Shown piece after piece: positions 175-10,645 of a stretch of DNA of 64,000 nt (positions are counted from its first letter, which is position 1; each line of letters begins with the position of its first letter). The notes under the pieces were generated by a model, which worked only from the letters and a program-made list of their open reading frames with translations, did no database searches and was not told where the DNA came from. A program made the translations under genes and the position numbers. The DNA lies in the NCBI GenBank assembly GCA_046482545.1, contig JAWOEX010000038.1, positions 16,240-80,239 on the forward strand. Reading direction: 5' to 3'. The DNA is from Candidatus Thorarchaeota archaeon. GTDB lineage: Archaea > Asgardarchaeota > Thorarchaeia > Thorarchaeales > Thorarchaeaceae.

Positions 175-280
175 GGGCCGGTAGTTCAGCCTGGTAGAAT
201 GCCTCCTTGGCACTTGTCAAGCGTTAGCTTGATCTCCAAAATGGAGGAGGTCACGTGTTCAAATCACGTCCGGTCCACCA
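175..280 (+). tRNA. tRNA-Ala(GGC) with a 29-nt intron at position 37/38 (213-241); CCA encoded
   Basis: Acceptor stem GGGCCGG/CCGGTCC with G3:U70; anticodon stem CCTCC/GGAGG; GGC at 209-211; T-loop GTTCAAATC; ACCA end. Confidence 0.95.
213..241 (+). other. tRNA intron with relaxed BHB motif
   Basis: Central helix TTGG(207-210)/CCAA(236-239); bulges CA|C and AA|T; internal hairpin TCAAGC-GTTA-GCTTGA. Confidence 0.9.
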
Positions 281-2832: not shown

Positions 2833-2903
2833 GAGAGATAGACTCTACTTTTCCAAATAATCTACGCTCAGATTGCTGGTTACTTTACGATTCTCTCCTC
2901 CGA

Positions 2904-4157
2904 CTAGGAAGAAATCTCGGCATGCGCTTTAGATGCCCTTTCGTGTTCACCTTCTTTTGCTCTTTCTTCACTCCTTGCGGCGGGCAAATAAGCCAGAATC
3001 GGAAAGAGAATTAAAGATAGAAAGAATGGTGTTAATCTATCGATATTTTCTTCTGCACCCAACAAGAAAGCGGCTATTCCACCCAAAACTGAGAACAGAC
3101 CAGAAAAGGATCTTGCACTCTCTACAACGCCTTGTGCTTCTCCACGTCTTGTGTCTTCGGAGTGGCCAGCAGCCAGCGAAACTGAAGACACAGAAATGAG
3201 TGGCCATATTGGGAAGATCCACACCATAGCTGCACTAATTGGGTGATTTAGAATGCCCAGAAGGAAGAGCCCAAGATTTCCAAAGATGCCTAGTCTCAAT
3301 GCAAAAGAATCACCGATGCGATCAGTAAGCTTGCCATAACCAAAGGAACCGATAGCTCCTGCCAATCCACTAAGTGCACTGATGATACCAATCCAGAAAC
3401 TCTCCTTTCCATATATCTCATACATCTTTACTTGGAAAAGTGGCAGAAACACTCCACGACCTACACTGATGAGGAGAATAGCCATTGTAACCTGAAAGAG
3501 AACTGGCTTCATATTTCGAAGACCCTCCAAGACACCTCTGCTGGGGGAAGCTTCAGTCTCGATGTCTTCCTCTTGAAACAGGATAAGAAAAATCGCCATG
3601 GCGATGATGTGGATTGCAGCGGTGAACGTGAATGTAAGATAAAGAGGCCAGATGTCCCAAATATAACCAATCAAAAGTCCACCCAACCCCCATCCGGCTG
3701 ATGAGAATAGGAAGAATGCACCAATATTGCTTGCTCTTTGTTCCTCTTTTTGTTCCATCAGCGTAATGGCTGCATTACGAACAGGATTGTACAGGGAGGT
3801 GAACAAGGAAGCCAACATATAGGCGAAGAGAAGCATCCCTAAATGTAGAATACCTGAACCAGATGCCAGTTCAGTAAGCGGGAAAGTGATTGTGAACGCT
3901 GCCTGTCCTAGCATAGAAAGGGCAAGCAGCTTTTTCCTAGAAGCGAATATGTCACTAATGTATCCCCAAACCCAAGAAAGTGAGATTGCTGTTATGGCAA
4001 CAATGGTTCTACATAAGGAACTAGCTACAAATCCATACAGGTCGTAGACATAGAGGGGAATGAACGTAAAGTACAATGACAGAATAAAGCCGCCCGTAAT
4101 CTGCATAGGAATGAGCGCAAATCCGCTTCTAGACCGAAGAATAGATTTCTCTGTCAT
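2904..4157 (-). CDS. MFS transporter
   Basis: About 12 hydrophobic segments; motif-A-like WGYISDIFASRK and GKLTDRIGD. Confidence 0.85.
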   Translation of the reverse strand: MTEKSILRSRSGFALIPMQITGGFILSLYFTFIPLYVYDLYGFVASSLCRTIVAITAISLSWVWGYISDIFASRKKLLALSMLGQAAFTITFPLTELASGSGILHLGMLLFAYMLASLFTSLYNPVRNAAITLMEQKEEQRASNIGAFFLFSSAGWGLGGLLIGYIWDIWPLYLTFTFTAAIHIIAMAIFLILFQEEDIETEASPSRGVLEGLRNMKPVLFQVTMAILLISVGRGVFLPLFQVKMYEIYGKESFWIGIISALSGLAGAIGSFGYGKLTDRIGDSFALRLGIFGNLGLFLLGILNHPISAAMVWIFPIWPLISVSSVSLAAGHSEDTRRGEAQGVVESARSFSGLFSVLGGIAAFLLGAEENIDRLTPFFLSLILFPILAYLPAARSEERAKEGEHERASKAHAEISS

Positions 4158-4243
4158 CTCGGACCCCCATCAGTATTGTTTGCAACCTCGTGTCGAAAGG
4201 CGGTTGACTGTTGGCGATTCTAGCTACTGACAATTCGTCTACT

Positions 4244-5380
4244 TCAGATGCTGTCAATTTCTTTAATCTTGGCGATAATTTCGGTTGGCAACTGTGGCAT
4301 ACCTGTTGGTTTCTGCATCAAGTGAATTGGCGTTGATGAAGCAGCTCCTTTCACCATGTGGTAGATTTGACCCATATTCTGCTCGGCCACAATTACATGC
4401 TCCACTTCTGATGCCATATTAGCGACGATTTGTTCAGGAAATGGCCATACCGTCTTCAATCTCAGCATCCCCGCCTTAATACCCTCTTCTCTGACTTCTC
4501 GGATGGCTTTTCGCCCGCTGCGTGATGGTGTTCCATACGCAACCAATGCTATCTCAGCATCGTCGAGCATGAATTTCTCAACTTCGACAATGTCATCCAT
4601 GTGATCGAGAATCTTACTGTTGAGGCGGTTGATTAATCTCATCTGGACATCATCGGCATCAGTTGGGTATCCACGTTCATCGTGAGTAAGGCCAGTTGCA
4701 TAGAACTGGTATTCTGAACCAAATAGTGCCATCGGAGGAATTTGATCATCATCAGGTTTGAATGGTAGATACTCCGAAGGATCAACCGTTGGTTGCTTTC
4801 GGTCTACGATTTCTATGTCATCTTGATCTGGAATGATAAGACGTTCTCTCATGTGGCCTACCGTTTCATCTGCTAGCACAAACACAGGAACTCTATATTT
4901 CTCAGCCAAGTTGAATGCCTTTACCGTCTCATCAAACATCTCTTGAACTGAAGCTGGGGTTAGGGCAATGATTTGATAGTCTCCATGGCTACCCCATTTT
5001 GCCTGCATGACGTCACCTTGCTGTCCCCGTGTGGGTTGCCCGGTGCTTGGTGCACCTCTCATGATATTGACCAACACCAACGGTGTTTCAGTCATTACAG
5101 CCAGACCTATTGCTTCTAGCATGAGACTGACACCTGGTCCAGAGGTTGCAGTCATAGACTTTGTGCCCGTCCAAGAAGCTCCTATTACGCTCGTAATTGA
5201 TGCAATCTCATCTTCGTACTGCACATATGAGCCACCAACTTCTGGCATTCGTTGCGACATGCGTTCTGCTATTTCTGTGGCCGGTGTAATCGGATAACCA
5301 CCGAAATACCTGCAACCCGCATGTAGCGCTCCTTCTGCGCATGCGATGTCGCCCATGGTAAACATTGTCTGTTCAGGCAA
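4244..5380 (-). CDS. korA: 2-oxoacid:ferredoxin oxidoreductase alpha subunit
   Basis: GYPITPATEI, QYEDEIA, TATSGPG, RGAPSTG motifs. Confidence 0.9.
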   Translation of the reverse strand: MPEQTMFTMGDIACAEGALHAGCRYFGGYPITPATEIAERMSQRMPEVGGSYVQYEDEIASITSVIGASWTGTKSMTATSGPGVSLMLEAIGLAVMTETPLVLVNIMRGAPSTGQPTRGQQGDVMQAKWGSHGDYQIIALTPASVQEMFDETVKAFNLAEKYRVPVFVLADETVGHMRERLIIPDQDDIEIVDRKQPTVDPSEYLPFKPDDDQIPPMALFGSEYQFYATGLTHDERGYPTDADDVQMRLINRLNSKILDHMDDIVEVEKFMLDDAEIALVAYGTPSRSGRKAIREVREEGIKAGMLRLKTVWPFPEQIVANMASEVEHVIVAEQNMGQIYHMVKGAASSTPIHLMQKPTGMPQLPTEIIAKIKEIDSI

Positions 5381-5383
5381 TGA

Positions 5384-5722
5384 CTAGTCCTCCTCTTCCT
5401 GTTCGAATTCAGGAATCAGTGTCCCCTTCTCCAAATTCCCTTTTTCGTAGGCTTTTCGCGCTTTGTCTCTTTCTGTTAAGAAAATTGCCATATCCGGACA
5501 AATCCTTTCACAGAACTCGCAATTCACGCATGCGTCGATATCACAAGCTGTGACGGGATGATATCCTTTCTCATTGTACTTGCTTTCATCAATGCATAGC
5601 ACATTTTTTGGGCAGAACTCAGTGCATAACTCACATTGTTTACACTGTTCCTGCAAAATAACCAGTACTTCTTCCCTCACGCGGGGTGGTTTTGGAGTGA
5701 TTGGCTCTCGAGTACTAGACAC
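5384..5722 (-). CDS. korD: 2x[4Fe-4S] ferredoxin, 2-oxoacid oxidoreductase delta subunit
   Basis: CKQCELCTEFCP and CVNCEFCERICP; directly upstream of korA. Confidence 0.85.
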   Translation of the reverse strand: MSSTREPITPKPPRVREEVLVILQEQCKQCELCTEFCPKNVLCIDESKYNEKGYHPVTACDIDACVNCEFCERICPDMAIFLTERDKARKAYEKGNLEKGTLIPEFEQEEED

Positions 5723-5953
5723 GGCTTCTTTCTCCTTGGTCGCTCCGATAAACTCAATGAGAGGTTTTGGTGTACACCAAAGCTCTACCAGGTCGGCCTG
5801 ATTCTATCGCTGAAGACGGAGTATTTGAGAATATTGGTACCCTCACAACCTTCCTTCTTACATTCAAATAGATGGTTGTCTTTTTCATCGCCATAGTAGT
5901 TAAGAGGTGTGGGTGTGGAGATATGACTGTACCCCTTGTTGGAGCGATAGCAC

Positions 5954-6418
5954 TTGCCTGAGAAAATACCGCCACAGGATGAATTAGAACAATCTATCAA
6001 AGGAAAAACGCTCCGTGTATACTGGTATATGCTTCGCCATCCTGAACCGATGACAGCTCGAGAGATACAACATGGGACCGATCTTTCGAGTCCATCATTG
6101 TCCATGCATCATTTGGAAAAAATGAAGGACATAGGACTCGTCAACAAAGACCGGCACGGGCGGTATACTGTTAGGAGAGATATCCGCGTGGGCATGCTGA
6201 AGCAGTTTATCGGCAGAGGGCGTTTGATGGTACCAAGATATCTTTTCTATGCTACATTTTACTCTTCGCTCACTGCAGCACTTGCTACATTACTATGGTA
6301 TTTTATTGACTGGTATTCTGTCTTGCTTCTGTTTCTTATGGCATCGGTCTGTGCTGTCCTGTGGTATGAAGCATTCCGAATATGGAGAAATGTCCCGTTC
6401 CCGGAGGAGGAAGAATGA
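5954..6418 (+). CDS. Winged-helix transcription regulator with two C-terminal TM helices
   Basis: TAREIQHGTDLSSPSLSMHHLEKMKDIGLV wHTH followed by two hydrophobic segments. Confidence 0.75.
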   Translation: MPEKIPPQDELEQSIKGKTLRVYWYMLRHPEPMTAREIQHGTDLSSPSLSMHHLEKMKDIGLVNKDRHGRYTVRRDIRVGMLKQFIGRGRLMVPRYLFYATFYSSLTAALATLLWYFIDWYSVLLLFLMASVCAVLWYEAFRIWRNVPFPEEEE

Positions 6419-7425
6419 AATTGAAAAAGTATACCCGCCATAATTTCGTGCAAAAACAGTATTCCGAACACCAAACCCAGATTGCTGATTCTGTTTGGCT
6501 GTGGTCGAAAGCGGGAAGACGAAAAGGAGCAGTCTTACTCCCATTGCTTTTCATGCTCTTTGCACTTCCTTTGATTTCAACTGCAGGCTTTTGGAAGTTA
6601 TCTTCACTTAGTGAAGGTTCAACTGTTACAGTATCGGCAGAACCTCCTGAGCTAAATCTGACATACTACTCATTGTGGAACGAATCCAAGACACCAGTTA
6701 AACTGGGAGGCGACACACTTATTGGCGATCACATAATCCTAAATGCTACGTGGACGCCTGACACTACTATTGAGAAAACAGCGCTGGATGTTCGTGCTCC
6801 GGCTATACCGGCGAATATCACAAATGTAAGTACTTCCAGTAGCATAGAAATAAACACTCGAAAGCTAGGCAACAATGCTACCTGTATTATTAATGCAACC
6901 GCTTGGTGGGGCGATGGTTACGTTACCTATAAGCTCTTTCACGAGATCTTCATTGGCAATTTCTTCGTCCCTCATTTGGAGCTGCAAGATCCCAATGGCG
7001 GCGAGGTCTGGACTGGGGTAAACAATGTGACTTGGACCGCGGAGGACAACAATATAGAAGAGAATCTTACGTTCGAAGTGCTTCTGTCAGCAGATGCTGG
7101 TGCTAGTTATCAATTGCTTCGTGCAGATTTGAACAGAACTTGGTTCGAGTGGAACTGTACTGGCTTTCTCAATCTGACGACTTACAAGATTCAGGTGAGA
7201 GCAACAGATGGAATCTACATAGTATCTGATGAATCTGACAACACTTTCACTGCCGGAGACATATATGCATCTCCCACTACCACAACTACAATAACTGGAA
7301 CAACCACTACGACTACTCGACCAACTACATTGTCGCCGGAGATAGGGCTGATAATCTCCGTAACCATAGTAGCTAGTGCGTTCCTTGCTGTGGGAGTCTA
7401 CTACGTTGCCAAAACAAGGCTTTAA
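6415..7425 (+). CDS. Exported, C-terminally anchored protein with Ig/Fn3-like domains and Thr-rich linker
   Basis: ATG at 6415 overlaps the upstream TGA (ATGA) behind GGAGG; N-terminal hydrophobic segment, many NxS/T sequons, poly-Thr, TM helix and basic tail. Confidence 0.75.
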   Translation: MKLKKYTRHNFVQKQYSEHQTQIADSVWLWSKAGRRKGAVLLPLLFMLFALPLISTAGFWKLSSLSEGSTVTVSAEPPELNLTYYSLWNESKTPVKLGGDTLIGDHIILNATWTPDTTIEKTALDVRAPAIPANITNVSTSSSIEINTRKLGNNATCIINATAWWGDGYVTYKLFHEIFIGNFFVPHLELQDPNGGEVWTGVNNVTWTAEDNNIEENLTFEVLLSADAGASYQLLRADLNRTWFEWNCTGFLNLTTYKIQVRATDGIYIVSDESDNTFTAGDIYASPTTTTTITGTTTTTTRPTTLSPEIGLIISVTIVASAFLAVGVYYVAKTRL

Positions 7426-7752
7426 CATTCAACCAAGTATTTTATTCATAAACGGCTGCGTATTGAGGCGTGTTTAGTAAGCCCAAGCTCTTTGGGCTCT
7501 AAACCATGACTAAACCAAGAAGTTCTGTGTAGTATGGGACTGGGAGCTCGCATTTCTTCTCTCCCAGCTCCTTATTCGATTGGCCCTGCATCGATATCTT
7601 CTTGCATGAAGCCTACATCAACCCTCTTAGAGCACATCGTATAACGATTTATGTCTGCCATCAGATGGCCTCTGAACTCTCATGTTGCGGTATGGAGTCT
7701 CTGCTCGATTGTTATGAGCGTTCAGAAGCAGAAAAGCACAGATTCAGCTTCT

Positions 7753-7950
7753 CTATTGATAGTCGTAGTCTGTTAGTGACAACAAGCCCTTGTTGCCTAT
7801 CCTAGCATTTGTGAGCCCTTCATCTTCAGCTATCCTCTTTGCGTCCTCTGCATGTTCTCTACTTGTTCTGGGCAAATCAGACATTGCATGGTGGGGTTGA
7901 AATCCGAGCAGAGCAGTTGGGATTGATGGATTGCACTCAGCTACGAATCC
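7753..7950 (-). pseudogene. 3' remnant of a PflA-like (COG1180-type) radical SAM gene
   Basis: Manual translation GFVAECNPSIPTALLGFQPHHAMSDLPRTSREHAEDAKRIAEDEGLTNARIGNKGLL...; in-frame stop at 7977-7975 just upstream; no start codon upstream of the homologous segment and no CxxxCxxC. Confidence 0.65.
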
Positions 7951-7959
7951 AGAATATGA

Positions 7960-8018
7960 AAATCTTACAGAATCCTAAATAAATCGGCACATAGAAGTGC
8001 AAAATATCTGTAAGATTT
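7960..8018. repeat. 12-bp perfect inverted repeat enclosing a small hairpin
   Basis: AAATCTTACAGA (7960-71) / TCTGTAAGATTT (8007-18); inner GCAC-ATAGAA-GTGC. Confidence 0.8.
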
Positions 8019-8080
8019 CCTGTATGCCTTCTTATGACCAAGGGCGAGGGGAGTTTATTAGGCCTAGTAAGAAATCCGAG

Positions 8081-8505
8081 TCTAGTAGGACTAGGGCGGT
8101 GGGCCACTCCCAGCGGGGTACGAGCCCAGCCCCGAAGGCTGTGAGGAAGACCCCGTCTTCTAAGCAGAAGTCCTCACTCTCCCGTAACGGTCCTCCATCA
8201 GGCCGGGGGGAGTCCGCGGCTGTTCGCTGTGTCCAACTGGACCTGTCCAGCTTTGGTGACGAAGCCGGGCAGAGCGATAATAACCCCGCCGTGGCAAGGA
8301 CTGTGGAAGACCTCACTGTCGCCGGAGTGATGACCCGAAGCACGACAGGAGACAGAAAACAGGACCGTGGGAGGAATCTTATTCCACTGAACGCGGACGA
8401 AGCCCCTGCTAACCTGAGGGCCTACGGTTACCTTGGGGGCGGTAACGCTAGCAGGGGAAGAGTGGAACACAGAAGTTTCATGCAGTTGCTACAACTGTAA
8501 GAAAC
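8081..8505 (+). ncRNA. Candidate large structured non-coding RNA, family unassigned
   Basis: GC-rich segment after TATA-like TTTATTAG (8054-61); many 6-9 bp helices, a GUGA tetraloop, long-range pairings and a terminal hairpin. Confidence 0.6.
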
Positions 8506-8554
8506 AGGTTATACAGAAATGGATGTATTAGTACTAAGCTTCACGTGATAAAAA

Positions 8555-8983
8555 TCAGCTGGAAACTTTTTCCATCACTACATTCTTGACACCATCAAGC
8601 TGTTCAAGTGTTGCTCGGAAAGCGTCCATTTCTTCAGAAAGTTGGGTTGGCGAGAAATAGCATTCATAGAAACAGCGCGTACCACGAAGGCAAACACCAG
8701 TCGAGAATAACAAATCAACCAATCCGGCCTTCTTGAAAACATGAGATAGCTCAGTGAGAAAGTCATTTGTAAGCTTCCCAATCTCTAGGCTTAGATACGT
8801 AACTTCATCAGTATCAATCGGAAAGATCTTCACGATGCGGTCCTTGTGAACTAACACCATAAGACCCCTATCAGTAGAGATAGCCTCTTTGAATGAATTC
8901 GGGAAAGTGACCTTCTCTGAATTGTCAAAAACTAGCACGCGTCCAGCGGTTGCACCTTCGTAATCTTCTTCTTCTTCTGCCAT
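8555..8983 (-). CDS. Hypothetical regulator: AbrB-like N-terminal domain plus ACT-like C-terminal domain
   Basis: RVLVFDNSEKVTFPNSFKEAI (AbrB-like pattern); ACT-like end LEQLDGVKNVVMEKV; start taken at ATG 8983. Confidence 0.5.
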   Translation of the reverse strand: MAEEEEDYEGATAGRVLVFDNSEKVTFPNSFKEAISTDRGLMVLVHKDRIVKIFPIDTDEVTYLSLEIGKLTNDFLTELSHVFKKAGLVDLLFSTGVCLRGTRCFYECYFSPTQLSEEMDAFRATLEQLDGVKNVVMEKVSS

Positions 8984-9135
8984 GATTTGCTCATCCCCTA
9001 GCGTGGAAGAGTACCAAGCGAGCTCCTGTTTTTGTACCCCCACCCAAATATAAATGAAGCTCTACTGTTTAGGGTTCGCTTCCAAAAGCGATTGAAACCA
9101 ATAGAGTCTTTTTTGTGTACTTTATTGAGTGGCAT

Positions 9136-9556: not shown

Positions 9557-10645
9557 CTACCAACGCAATCTCGCAGCCACACCACCAAACGATTCCAATT
9601 GTGCGCCGGCTTCACTCTCTGGTGAAAAAATCATTAGTTCAGTTCCGTAATCTTCAACCTCATCCACGACGTCGTCAATCAGATCCGTTTTCTCCTCCAA
9701 AACCATCATTGTTTCCACGCGGCCGTTCCGCAAAGCACGTAGAACCTCCTCCTTACCGTATGTTGCGGTCGGACGGCTTTTCATTAAGTCCTCCATGAAG
9801 CTATCCCAAGCCTTGCGTGCAGCATAGATTTCAGTCTCGTGGAGCACCCTTGAAGCTTCTTTCACGGCTTGTTGTAGGCCGGTTTCATCAATCAAGCCAA
9901 CCGAGATAATGTTGTCAACAATCTTCTCTCTGAGTCGATAATCGAGATCTGATTTCTCCAGAAACTCCTGCGCACGGATGGTATTGCCACCGACGATTAT
10001 GGCATCAACACTATCAAGCTCATTAAGCAGCATGTCATTGAGAAGATTACCCACATGTTTGTAAAACTCCATCATTTTTTCGTCTCTTATGCGCTGATAC
10101 CGCTTGGCACTCTGACCACCTGCTCGCGTCTTGCCGATGATGTAGTAGTCTTCTTCCCTGACCAGCTCAATATGATTGCCTCGTAGATAGCCCACCACAA
10201 CTTGGCCACCTTCAATCAGAACAATAACAACCAAGCTCTTTGGCTTCGTTAGTTCCTCAAGCTCATCCAAGACAAACTCCCGTCCACAGATATAGTCGAA
10301 TTTGGAAATGGGTGAAGGTGGAACGACTATCTCCCGGATTTCTTTTTCGGTACCGCCTTCTCTCTTTATTCCGAAGAAGAAAGCCATACCATTCTCAGGG
10401 ATTTCACCTATAACCGATAGCTCATTCAGGATAGCTGTAAGATTATCGATTACCCGCTTTCTGTTAGTTTTGCTCTTTATGTTCTCTGCTCCTGCAAGCT
10501 CCGACTTAACGAAATTTATGACATCGACTAGGCTCTTCTCAGGTGGAATATACAAAGTTGTGAAGGAGCTATGCCTGCCCTTCAGTTCTTTCAACTGCTC
10601 AACCTTGCGTTTGAGCTTTATTCTCTTAGGGTCCATCGTAAGCAA
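9557..10645 (-). CDS. prf1: Peptide chain release factor aRF1
   Basis: NIKS, YICGREF (YxCxxxF) and GGQS motifs; C-terminal FGGVAARLRW. Confidence 0.9.
   Translation of the reverse strand: MLTMDPKRIKLKRKVEQLKELKGRHSSFTTLYIPPEKSLVDVINFVKSELAGAENIKSKTNRKRVIDNLTAILNELSVIGEIPENGMAFFFGIKREGGTEKEIREIVVPPSPISKFDYICGREFVLDELEELTKPKSLVVIVLIEGGQVVVGYLRGNHIELVREEDYYIIGKTRAGGQSAKRYQRIRDEKMMEFYKHVGNLLNDMLLNELDSVDAIIVGGNTIRAQEFLEKSDLDYRLREKIVDNIISVGLIDETGLQQAVKEASRVLHETEIYAARKAWDSFMEDLMKSRPTATYGKEEVLRALRNGRVETMMVLEEKTDLIDDVVDEVEDYGTELMIFSPESEAGAQLESFGGVAARLRW

Follow-up and report, generated by a model that had tools for sequence, protein, structure and literature searches.

What is the GC-rich, strongly structured island at positions 8081-8505 of a 64,000-nt stretch of Candidatus Thorarchaeota DNA? 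We refer to the whole stretch as the window, and coordinates given without a contig are positions in it. An earlier reading of its letters (the original prediction) had described the island as an unassigned multi-helix RNA of about 420 nt with a possible pseudoknot, and had left its identity between a divergent relative of RNase P RNA, a guide RNA derived from an element and a new RNA class. We conclude that the island is, with high probability, the omega-RNA scaffold of a TnpB protein, located in a gene-less 558-bp miniature copy of an 8.3-kb Cas1-type transposon of Thorarchaeota. The source genome (G000) comprises 3.05 Mb in 45 contigs and is 98.9% complete; G001 and G002 are its sister genomes.

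The island was recognized correctly as a unit of unusual composition, since its GC fraction is 0.54-0.64 compared with ~0.44 on either side. It also folds unusually well, with a minimum free energy (MFE) of -183.7 kcal/mol compared with -159.6 +/- 7.0 kcal/mol for dinucleotide shuffles (z -3.46), and none of 100 shuffles folded as well as the island. The original prediction had proposed an Rfam search, a search for a canonical rnpB elsewhere in the genome, and a covariation test on homologues. In Rfam, no known family matched the island, either at the gathering threshold across the whole window or at E <= 10 in 7900-8700, where the rows listed at E <= 10 were only chance-level small nucleolar RNA, microRNA and long noncoding RNA models. 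The models for HEARO, group I/II introns, RNase P, MRP and the signal recognition particle (SRP) RNA were among those that did not match 7900-8700. A canonical RNaseP_arch gene was found on a different contig from the island (G000:C34:21067-21410, 156.5 bits), and the canonical Archaea_SRP gene (103.5 bits) also lies on a different contig of G000. Because genuine genes for both RNAs sit elsewhere, we rejected RNase P RNA and SRP RNA as identities of the island.

BLASTN of the island against its own genome returned dozens of copies with 73-83% identity, and wider queries showed that the homology shared by full copies spans ~7957 to 8512. Our census of G000 counted 87 loci (copies or fragments) that add up to 29.6 kb, or 0.97% of the genome; 28 of them are two-ended, in 40 the RNA module is nearly complete and 9 lie against a contig end, and many copies are 5'-truncated or internally deleted. 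The copy in the window occupies 7954-8511 (558 bp) and has no gene; this repeat unit is larger than the feature originally described. Its features, together with those of its borders, are the following.

7948-7953, + strand: 5' target hexamer TCCAGA; T(C/A)NNGA borders both ends of copies.
7954-8030, + strand: left end (LE), a variable 6-nt tip (ATATGA) followed by a hairpin; kept in ~28 two-ended copies.
7960-7971 and 8007-8018, + strand: arms of the LE hairpin, AAATCTTACAGA and TCTGTAAGATTT; conserved in two-ended copies.
8054-8061, + strand: TATA-like box TTTATTAG, noticed in the original prediction and conserved among miniature copies.
8063-8390, + strand: relic of the last ~100 tnpB codons in a broken frame; 68% identity to the TnpB tail.
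8081-8511, + strand: omega-RNA-like structured module, homologous to the tnpB 3' region in loci L032, L033, L034 and L035.
8475-8505, + strand: right-end (RE) hairpin with outer stem GTTTC/GAAAC (93% paired, as had been proposed for a terminal hairpin) and inner stem CAGTTG/CAACTG.
8507-8511, + strand: right terminus GGTTA, the final element bases; conservation stops here, and two occupied/empty site junctions coincide with it.
8512-8517, + strand: 3' target hexamer TACAGA, with one mismatch to the 5' copy TCCAGA.
8512-8535, + strand: candidate guide segment, if the RNA passes the RE, by analogy with the canonical architecture of obligate mobile element-guided activity (OMEGA) systems (PMC10055086).

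The repeat was found in 18 of the 24 sampled genomes of the same taxonomic family, and the remaining genomes of the phylum gave one marginal match only. When public genomes were scanned with a conserved 16-mer, all archaeal matches were metagenome-assembled genomes (MAGs) labelled 'Candidatus Thorarchaeota' or 'uncultured archaeon'; in bacteria the 16-mer matched only singly and by chance, in GC-rich genomes. One RNA-module copy in another genome (L238, G008:C19, at ~5003-5378) interrupts an ordinary CRISPR-Cas locus, with cas4 (4186-4824) on one side and a cas3-like HD gene (5559-8216) on the other. The cas1 gene of that locus (2896-3918) was considered as a gene of the element and rejected, as it belongs to the cas1-cas4-cas3 locus hit by the insertion.

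The identity of the module came from its longer relatives. Several copies that appeared 5'-truncated actually follow a long open reading frame (ORF). The 560-amino-acid ORF of L032 (L032:908-2587) contains a Cas12f1-like TNB domain (PF07282, residues 386-444, E 3.5e-10), aligns over residues 207-449 with solved TnpB/Cas12f chains (best E 1.6e-7) and carries the TnpB motifs GIDLG (RuvC-I) and NADRN (RuvC-III); the NADXN form of RuvC-III has been assigned to 'derived' TnpBs (PMC10691335). About six long tnpB ORFs of the L032 type are present in G000. The GC-rich module starts directly after the TnpB core and runs to the element end, and this placement, behind the TnpB core and up to the RE, is that of the TnpB omega RNA, also called right-end RNA (reRNA). 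The overlap with the last ~100 tnpB codons and the end at the RE were found in L032-L035 and in 17 tnpB-linked copies from other genera, whereas the window copy itself is without a tnpB gene. Thus, among the identities first offered, the element-derived guide RNA was right in substance, the island being the RE module of a TnpB-encoding mobile element. The module is a variant of known omega RNAs and does not form a new RNA class.

The overlap with tnpB also explains the coding signal in the region. In the 17 tnpB-linked copies, which come from many genera, the tnpB frame is open through the first ~310 alignment columns and the stop falls at one column in 17/17, the equivalent TGA in the window being at 8388-8390. 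Upstream of the stop, 7/7 gap runs are multiples of three and lengths are equal modulo 3 in 14/14 copies tested; downstream of it gap lengths are mixed. Because the tnpB frame persists there, ~300 nt of the module in autonomous elements have two roles, as coding sequence for the TnpB tail and as structured RNA. Among the miniature copies, 20/22 gap runs are frame-breaking, region lengths vary modulo 3 and stops are found at scattered columns; here the coding frame is lost and the RNA-level pattern alone persists. The window contains an ORF at 7997-8500 (+ strand, 167 amino acids) whose residues 23-106 are 68% identical to TnpB residues 453-535 and which departs from the tnpB frame after ~8314. 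Overlapping ORFs had been dismissed as spurious; that is correct only in part, for this ORF is a frame-broken relic of the TnpB tail. That it makes a functional small protein is very unlikely: the frame is open across the region and part of the product resembles TnpB, but Pfam matched no family to the 167 residues, the frame is left well before its end, and frame conservation among miniature copies, which was looked for in their gap runs, lengths and stops, was not found.

A complete element of ~8.3 kb lies at G000:C28:133383-141680, with TCAGGAAT on each side. Its order is RE with the RNA module, tnpB, a giant gene (frameshifted in this copy) and an LE hairpin matching that of the short copies; the giant gene is on the strand opposite to tnpB, in head-to-head orientation. 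Three tnpB genes adjoin homologous giant ORFs of 1365 to >1860 amino acids with 28-30% identity and no Pfam family, all head-to-head with tnpB: L227:222-4418 (G000:C20:230621-234820), L229:147-4241 (- strand) and L228:112-5700. Since LE and RE are common to the short copies and the 8.3-kb element, the short copies are internal-deletion derivatives of it, similar to miniature inverted-repeat transposable elements (MITEs). They retain the LE, a ~55-nt segment with the TTTATTAG box, the entire RNA module and the RE. Like MITEs, they are short (558 bp), have no intact gene, share the termini and the target duplication of an autonomous element, and occur in 28 two-ended copies. The TATA-like box lies ~27 nt upstream of 8088, where homology to the tnpB-linked RNA module starts, and is a candidate archaeal promoter for the RNA of the miniature copies.

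A second RE-like motif (..GTGAACTCAACT..GAAACAGGTTAG) was observed ~40-60 nt upstream of the tnpB TATA box (TTTAAATA), for example at G000:C20:230333-230470 (- strand) and G000:C28:135203-135340 (- strand), and is preceded by a GAGTTCA...TGAACTC hairpin. The tnpB and RNA unit is thus bracketed by direct repeats of RE-like sequence.

The ends of the element could be defined to the base. It extends from a variable 6-7-nt tip and AAATCTTACAG on the left through GGTTA on the right, and its ends form an imperfect inverted repeat (TCTTACAG in the LE and CTGTAAGA in the RE). Across genera, the inner stem of the RE hairpin covaries (AGTTGG/CAACT, CGTGG/CCACG, GGGAGG/CCCTC and GTTGAG/CTCAA) around a conserved loop, TTCACTCA; in the window copy this loop has been deleted from the hairpin. 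Past GGTTA and the hexamer, sequence is unrelated between copies, and the first 6 nt there are the duplicated target. Among 19 automatically scored copies, 13 have the same central NN of T(C/A)NNGA at their two ends, compared with 3.97 expected; 0 of 10000 shuffles reached the count of 13 (motif background 0.0096 per position). Two insertions have an empty counterpart in a sister genome. At G000:C16, TCCTGA flanks both ends of a 555-bp element, and at the empty site G001:C145 the hexamer TCCTGA occurs once, between contiguous flanks; the element at G000:C34 has TCTAGA at both ends and the empty site at G001:C141 is a single cCTAGA. As each empty site holds one hexamer, insertion makes a 6-bp target duplication at TCNNGA. 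In the case of the C16 site, the insertion flanks in L239 (G000:C16:7400-9700) and L242 (G001:C145), from congeneric genomes, are 86-94% identical, compared with ~72-80% for the other compared flanks, which may reflect a recent exchange or an unusually conserved region.

The duplication excludes transposition of the IS200/IS605 type, which is scarless, and of the IS607 type, which uses a serine recombinase; it fits a staggered-cut integrase, such as an enzyme of the Cas1 family. An IS200/IS605 right-end-like hairpin had been noted in the original prediction, and it is indeed the RE hairpin of the element, but an element that duplicates 6 bp is not IS200/IS605-like. We rejected that family with its C_L/C_R logic, including palindrome-associated transposable elements (PATEs), on the grounds that the hexamer is duplicated and that the sole Y1_Tnp match in G000 (L043:1635-2375, G000:C24:6134-6874) is a truncated or fused relic. 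The Y1 (IS200-type) ORF of L043 looks truncated after ~100 residues and continues into unrelated, membrane-protein-like sequence. IS607 was considered because TC-NN-GA resembles a serine-recombinase core, and was rejected because the genome has no resolvase and the entire hexamer is duplicated; no serine recombinase (PF00239) was found in G000, and none adjoins the tnpB genes inspected. Some copies have extended direct repeats (8-11 nt), for which we also considered a longer duplication. Insertion beside an older LE accounts for them better, since the sequence 3' of the C18 copy reads on into the start of an LE.

For the window copy itself, an orthologous empty site was not found in G001 or G002. 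Its left flank (7565-7947) matches G001:C141 and G002:C28, and its right flank (8565-9073) matches G001:C13 and G002:C114; as neither sister genome has the two flanks on one contig, the copy lies at a synteny break. Together with the mismatch between its two hexamers, this suggests either mutation or recombination between copies.

We then asked whether the module is conserved as an RNA. The alignment consisted of 50 copies, namely 23 miniature copies from G000, tnpB-linked copies and copies from >10 genera. The RNAalifold consensus contains 81 pairs, of which 47 show at least one compensatory double change. The helices of the consensus, with the number of compensatory cells in each, are listed below (all + strand).

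8245-52/8263-70: 69 compensatory cells.
8373-77/8381-85: 38 compensatory cells.
8145-50/8156-61: 29 compensatory cells.
8224-28/8273-77: 29 compensatory cells.
8231-34/8239-42: 26 compensatory cells.
8403-10/8450-57: 24 compensatory cells.
8365-68/8393-96: 22 compensatory cells.
8438-41/8446-49: 20 compensatory cells.
8102-05/8137-40: 20 compensatory cells.
8316-20/8344-48: 17 compensatory cells.
8176-82/8207-13, 8088-92/8169-73, 8214-20/8288-94 and 8301-05/8468-72: near-invariant.

Mutual information with average product correction, calculated on 82 copies, was dominated by a subfamily signal in 8096-8131 and was not used.

Taken as a whole, the helices proposed in the original prediction beat 500/500 shuffles and all slid controls in five covariation measures. 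Individually they differ. Four are supported, in addition to the outer stem of the terminal hairpin: the helix at 8243-8272 has changes on both sides in 11 of its 12 pairs (50 copies); that at 8403-11/8449-57 is 93% paired with six pairs changed on both sides, CTGTCG/CGACAG (8316-21/8343-48) is 90% paired, and 8176-83/8206-13 is 91% paired with little variation. GTGAGGA/TCCTCAC is paired in 82% of copies, but it is weak or ambiguous as it competes with GGACT/AGTCC (8088-92/8169-73). Three further proposals did not hold: CAGCC/GGCTG is only 58% paired, TTCCACT/AGTGGAA (76% paired) has zero covariation and clashes with the strongly covarying hairpin 8373-77/8381-85, and the long-range pair GCGGGGT/ACCCCGC is 44% paired, its 5' arm being particular to the window copy. 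The 'P4-like' long-range pair GTCCGCG/CGCGGAC is 83% paired without real covariation; its 3' arm pairs with 8365-68 in the consensus, and the invariant 8288-94 is a possible partner of its 5' arm. As neither of the two crossing long-range pairs is conserved, the proposed pseudoknot is not supported as a conserved feature. At the apex of helix 8316-20/8344-48 (8322-8340), we also observed a covarying inner stem (the CCGGA.../...CCCGA region) around a near-invariant AGUGAUGA, a string that looks like a C-box or kink-turn and may be a putative binding site for L7Ae.

These data bear on the idea that the island is a free-standing RNA of a new structured noncoding class, or a divergent RNase P/MRP-like ribozyme, independent of any mobile element. 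Its size, GC-richness and multi-helix fold are like those of large ribozymes, and the absence of an Rfam match and the short P4-like and ACAGAAA-like strings would agree with such an identity. We give it next to no credence: canonical RNase P and SRP RNAs are encoded elsewhere, the P4-like pairing is not conserved, and autonomous copies have this sequence as the 3' end of their tnpB, bounded in every case by the transposon ends. The resemblance to RNase P/MRP RNA therefore falls away.

If the miniature copies act as the TnpB reading implies, we envisage the following by analogy with known OMEGA systems. The RNA of a miniature copy would be transcribed from the conserved TATA-like box at 8054 and would extend past the RE, so that flanking DNA supplies the guide. 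TnpB from the few intact copies could load this RNA in trans, and loaded TnpB might cut (or bind) the matching empty site, favouring retention or spread of the element. Integration with the 6-bp duplication would be carried out by the giant protein, whose N-terminus is predicted to be Cas1-like.

The prediction for the giant protein comes from structure. The protein has 29 homologue clusters, all of them Thorarchaeota-type MAG proteins annotated as hypothetical. We modelled residues 1-345 from a 20-sequence alignment (predicted local distance difference test score, pLDDT, 67.5; predicted template modelling score, pTM, 0.57). In an exhaustive structural search with this model, Cas1 or casposase chains took 9 of the 12 best ranks (Z 11.5 to 8.3), the best match being 8flj_A (Z 11.5, root mean square deviation 3.9, 172 residues aligned), with 4n06_B (Z 11.0) and the casposase 6opm_A (Z 9.2, 180 residues aligned) among the others. 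In Foldseek the top match was likewise Cas1 (E 0.089). A single-sequence model of residues 160-760 was useless (pLDDT 36). ESM-Atlas features gave Mrr/STAND-like neighbours (best score 0.77) and no Cas1. Elsewhere in the protein there is a weak PD-(D/E)xK lead (HSDR_N_2, E 0.077; motif GKGKAD...DLKTK), a P-loop-like SPTSSGKSAA and a conserved C-terminal H-C-H-C cluster. As the structural matches are consistent and the aligned lengths long, a Cas1-like catalytic domain appears to be the best reading of the modelled N-terminus.

Several observations weigh against the identification of the island as the omega-RNA scaffold of a Cas1-type TnpB transposon. The Cas1 likeness comes from a medium-confidence helical model, for which such Z values are not decisive; by sequence, the giant protein had no Cas1 match in Pfam at E <= 10 or with PDB sequence profiles (3 and 21 sequences), and hhalign against seven genuine Cas1 proteins from relatives gave a probability of 0.2%. 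The RuvC-II position of TnpB reads IGIGRL, with G replacing the usual catalytic E, so that nuclease activity would require a rearranged site of the type described in PMC10691335. No conserved target-adjacent motif (TAM) was found 5' of the hexamer among copies and, since the target is duplicated, the IS200/IS605 logic of TAM, element and guide is not directly transferable. Part of the conservation is at the protein level, as ~300 nt of the module are coding in autonomous copies, and much of the covariation among miniature copies was inherited from distinct masters (L032-type vs L035-type) and predates miniaturization. Finally, the copies are old, as judged from their 73-83% identity, many are truncated, and the one in the window could be an inert relic.

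In that last case the identity of the island would be the same, tnpB 3' end plus RE, but it would be a decaying, non-transcribed fossil whose fold is merely inherited. The 17-27% divergence of the copies and their many 5' truncations and internal deletions agree with this, as do the lack of an intact Y1 or serine transposase in G000, the broken tnpB frame of the miniature copies, and the unequal hexamers and non-syntenic flanks of the window copy. In contrast, the window copy retains 80/81 consensus pairs and the miniature copies 96.2% on average, and column divergence in miniature copies is half as high at paired as at unpaired positions (0.145 vs 0.302). A chimeric-arm control was still 92.6% paired, so that pair retention exceeds expectation by a modest margin, and subfamily differences come from distinct masters; ongoing selection on the miniature copies is thus suggested but not proven. 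The deletion spared the structured module in full, starting at its first helix, together with the TATA-like box, and the genome still has ~6 long tnpB ORFs whose products could use such RNAs. On balance we consider an inert relic unlikely.

A bolder version of the TnpB reading, to which we attach somewhat less belief still, is that the miniature copies form a dispersed library of self-promoted, trans-acting guides, each a ~430-nt omega RNA with its own flank-derived guide, that programs the few TnpB proteins, with their rearranged RuvC-II site, to act with the Cas1-like integrase. Empty TCNNGA sites might, for example, be the targets of homing or of integration guided by such RNAs. If true, the family would amount to a living intermediate linking a Cas1 transposon with TnpB to a CRISPR-like adaptive system.

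Two neighbouring genes in the window were also identified. The sole Rfam match in the window is a tRNA gene at 175-277 (+ strand, 52.8 bits) whose anticodon loop is interrupted by 31 extra nt, presumably an intron of archaeal type, and this marks the host as an archaeon; ARAGORN reported zero tRNAs in the window, although Rfam detects this one. An ORF of 361 amino acids at 9557-10645 (- strand) contains eRF1 domains 1-3 (Pfam E 1.7e-23, 1.7e-16 and 1.6e-08) and is an aRF1/Pelota-type release-factor family protein with no relation to the element.

TnpB omega RNAs are the ancestors of Cas12 guide RNAs, and the pairing of an omega RNA with a Cas1-like integrase in Asgard archaea has so far only been catalogued computationally. 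The repeat family described here offers a covariation-backed fold for an omega-RNA scaffold that is among the largest, precise element ends with a demonstrated 6-bp TCNNGA duplication, and a natural 558-bp substrate for testing cooperation between a Cas1-type transposon and a TnpB guide RNA. It also matters for annotation: ~1% of the genome and many contig breaks are explained by it, as is at least one break in synteny, and GC-rich 'orphan RNAs' of Thorarchaeota are usually copies of the 8.3-kb Cas1-type/TnpB element.

Compared with known systems, archaeal RNase P RNA (RF00373) is similar to the island in being a large, GC-rich, multi-helix RNA and in the short strings GAGUCCGCG and ACAGAAA; the island differs in having no match to the model and in its unconserved P4-like pairing. 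Casposons share with the element terminal inverted repeats, a target-site duplication and, as judged from the model, a candidate integrase of Cas1 fold (6opm_A). Casposon target duplications are ~14-15 bp, whereas the one found here is 6 bp, and the element has no family B polymerase. Its putative Cas1-like domain is the N-terminus of a 1400-1860-amino-acid protein with PD-(D/E)xK-like and P-loop-like regions, and it carries TnpB and an omega RNA in addition.

The multi-helix module is ~430 nt in length, compared with ~100-250 nt for characterized omega-RNA scaffolds; it overlaps ~100 codons and is without an Rfam model. As in the TnpB omega RNAs or reRNAs of OMEGA systems (IS605-family elements, PMC10055086; also ISDra2), it is structured, located at the tnpB 3' end, overlaps the end of the ORF and reaches the RE, and conservation stops at the boundary where the flank would supply the guide. 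The host element differs in its 6-bp duplication, its imperfect inverted ends and the lack of an evident TAM; IS200/IS605 elements transpose by scarless peel-and-paste beside a TAM. Protein-less, PATE-like IS200/IS605 derivatives have already been described that carry omega RNAs used in trans (Meers et al., PMC10055086). The miniature copies are similar to these in being minimal and non-autonomous, in keeping both ends and the omega RNA, and in their many copies per genome, and they would likewise need TnpB and a transposase in trans. They differ in that the parent is not of the Y1-TnpA type, that TCNNGA is duplicated and that they come with a conserved TATA-like box of their own.

In host and layout the element is like the Asgard TnpB loci that are associated with aCas1 (groups Cas1H-Asgard-1 and -2) in Altae-Tran et al. 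2023 (PMC10691335), a paper that already reports both the association and a GTTCACTCA motif downstream of tnpB. The text available to us does not describe a ~430-nt covarying scaffold overlapping 100 codons, miniature copies making up ~1% of a genome, a hairpin reading of the 'hypervariable' region, or the exact ends and the 6-bp duplication. It proposes the 'hypervariable region' beside GTTCACTCA as a possible guide; in our copies this region acts as the 5' arm of a hairpin with loop TTCACTCA and is not an obvious guide. The GTTCACTCA motif is present in the tnpB-linked and in many miniature copies, the window copy having the loop-deleted form. In common with those loci, the element has a Thorarchaeota host, the NADXN form of RuvC-III, GTTCACTCA downstream of tnpB, flanking repeats and a giant neighbour with a predicted Cas1-like N-terminal fold, features by which it is likened to Cas1H-Asgard-1 and -2.

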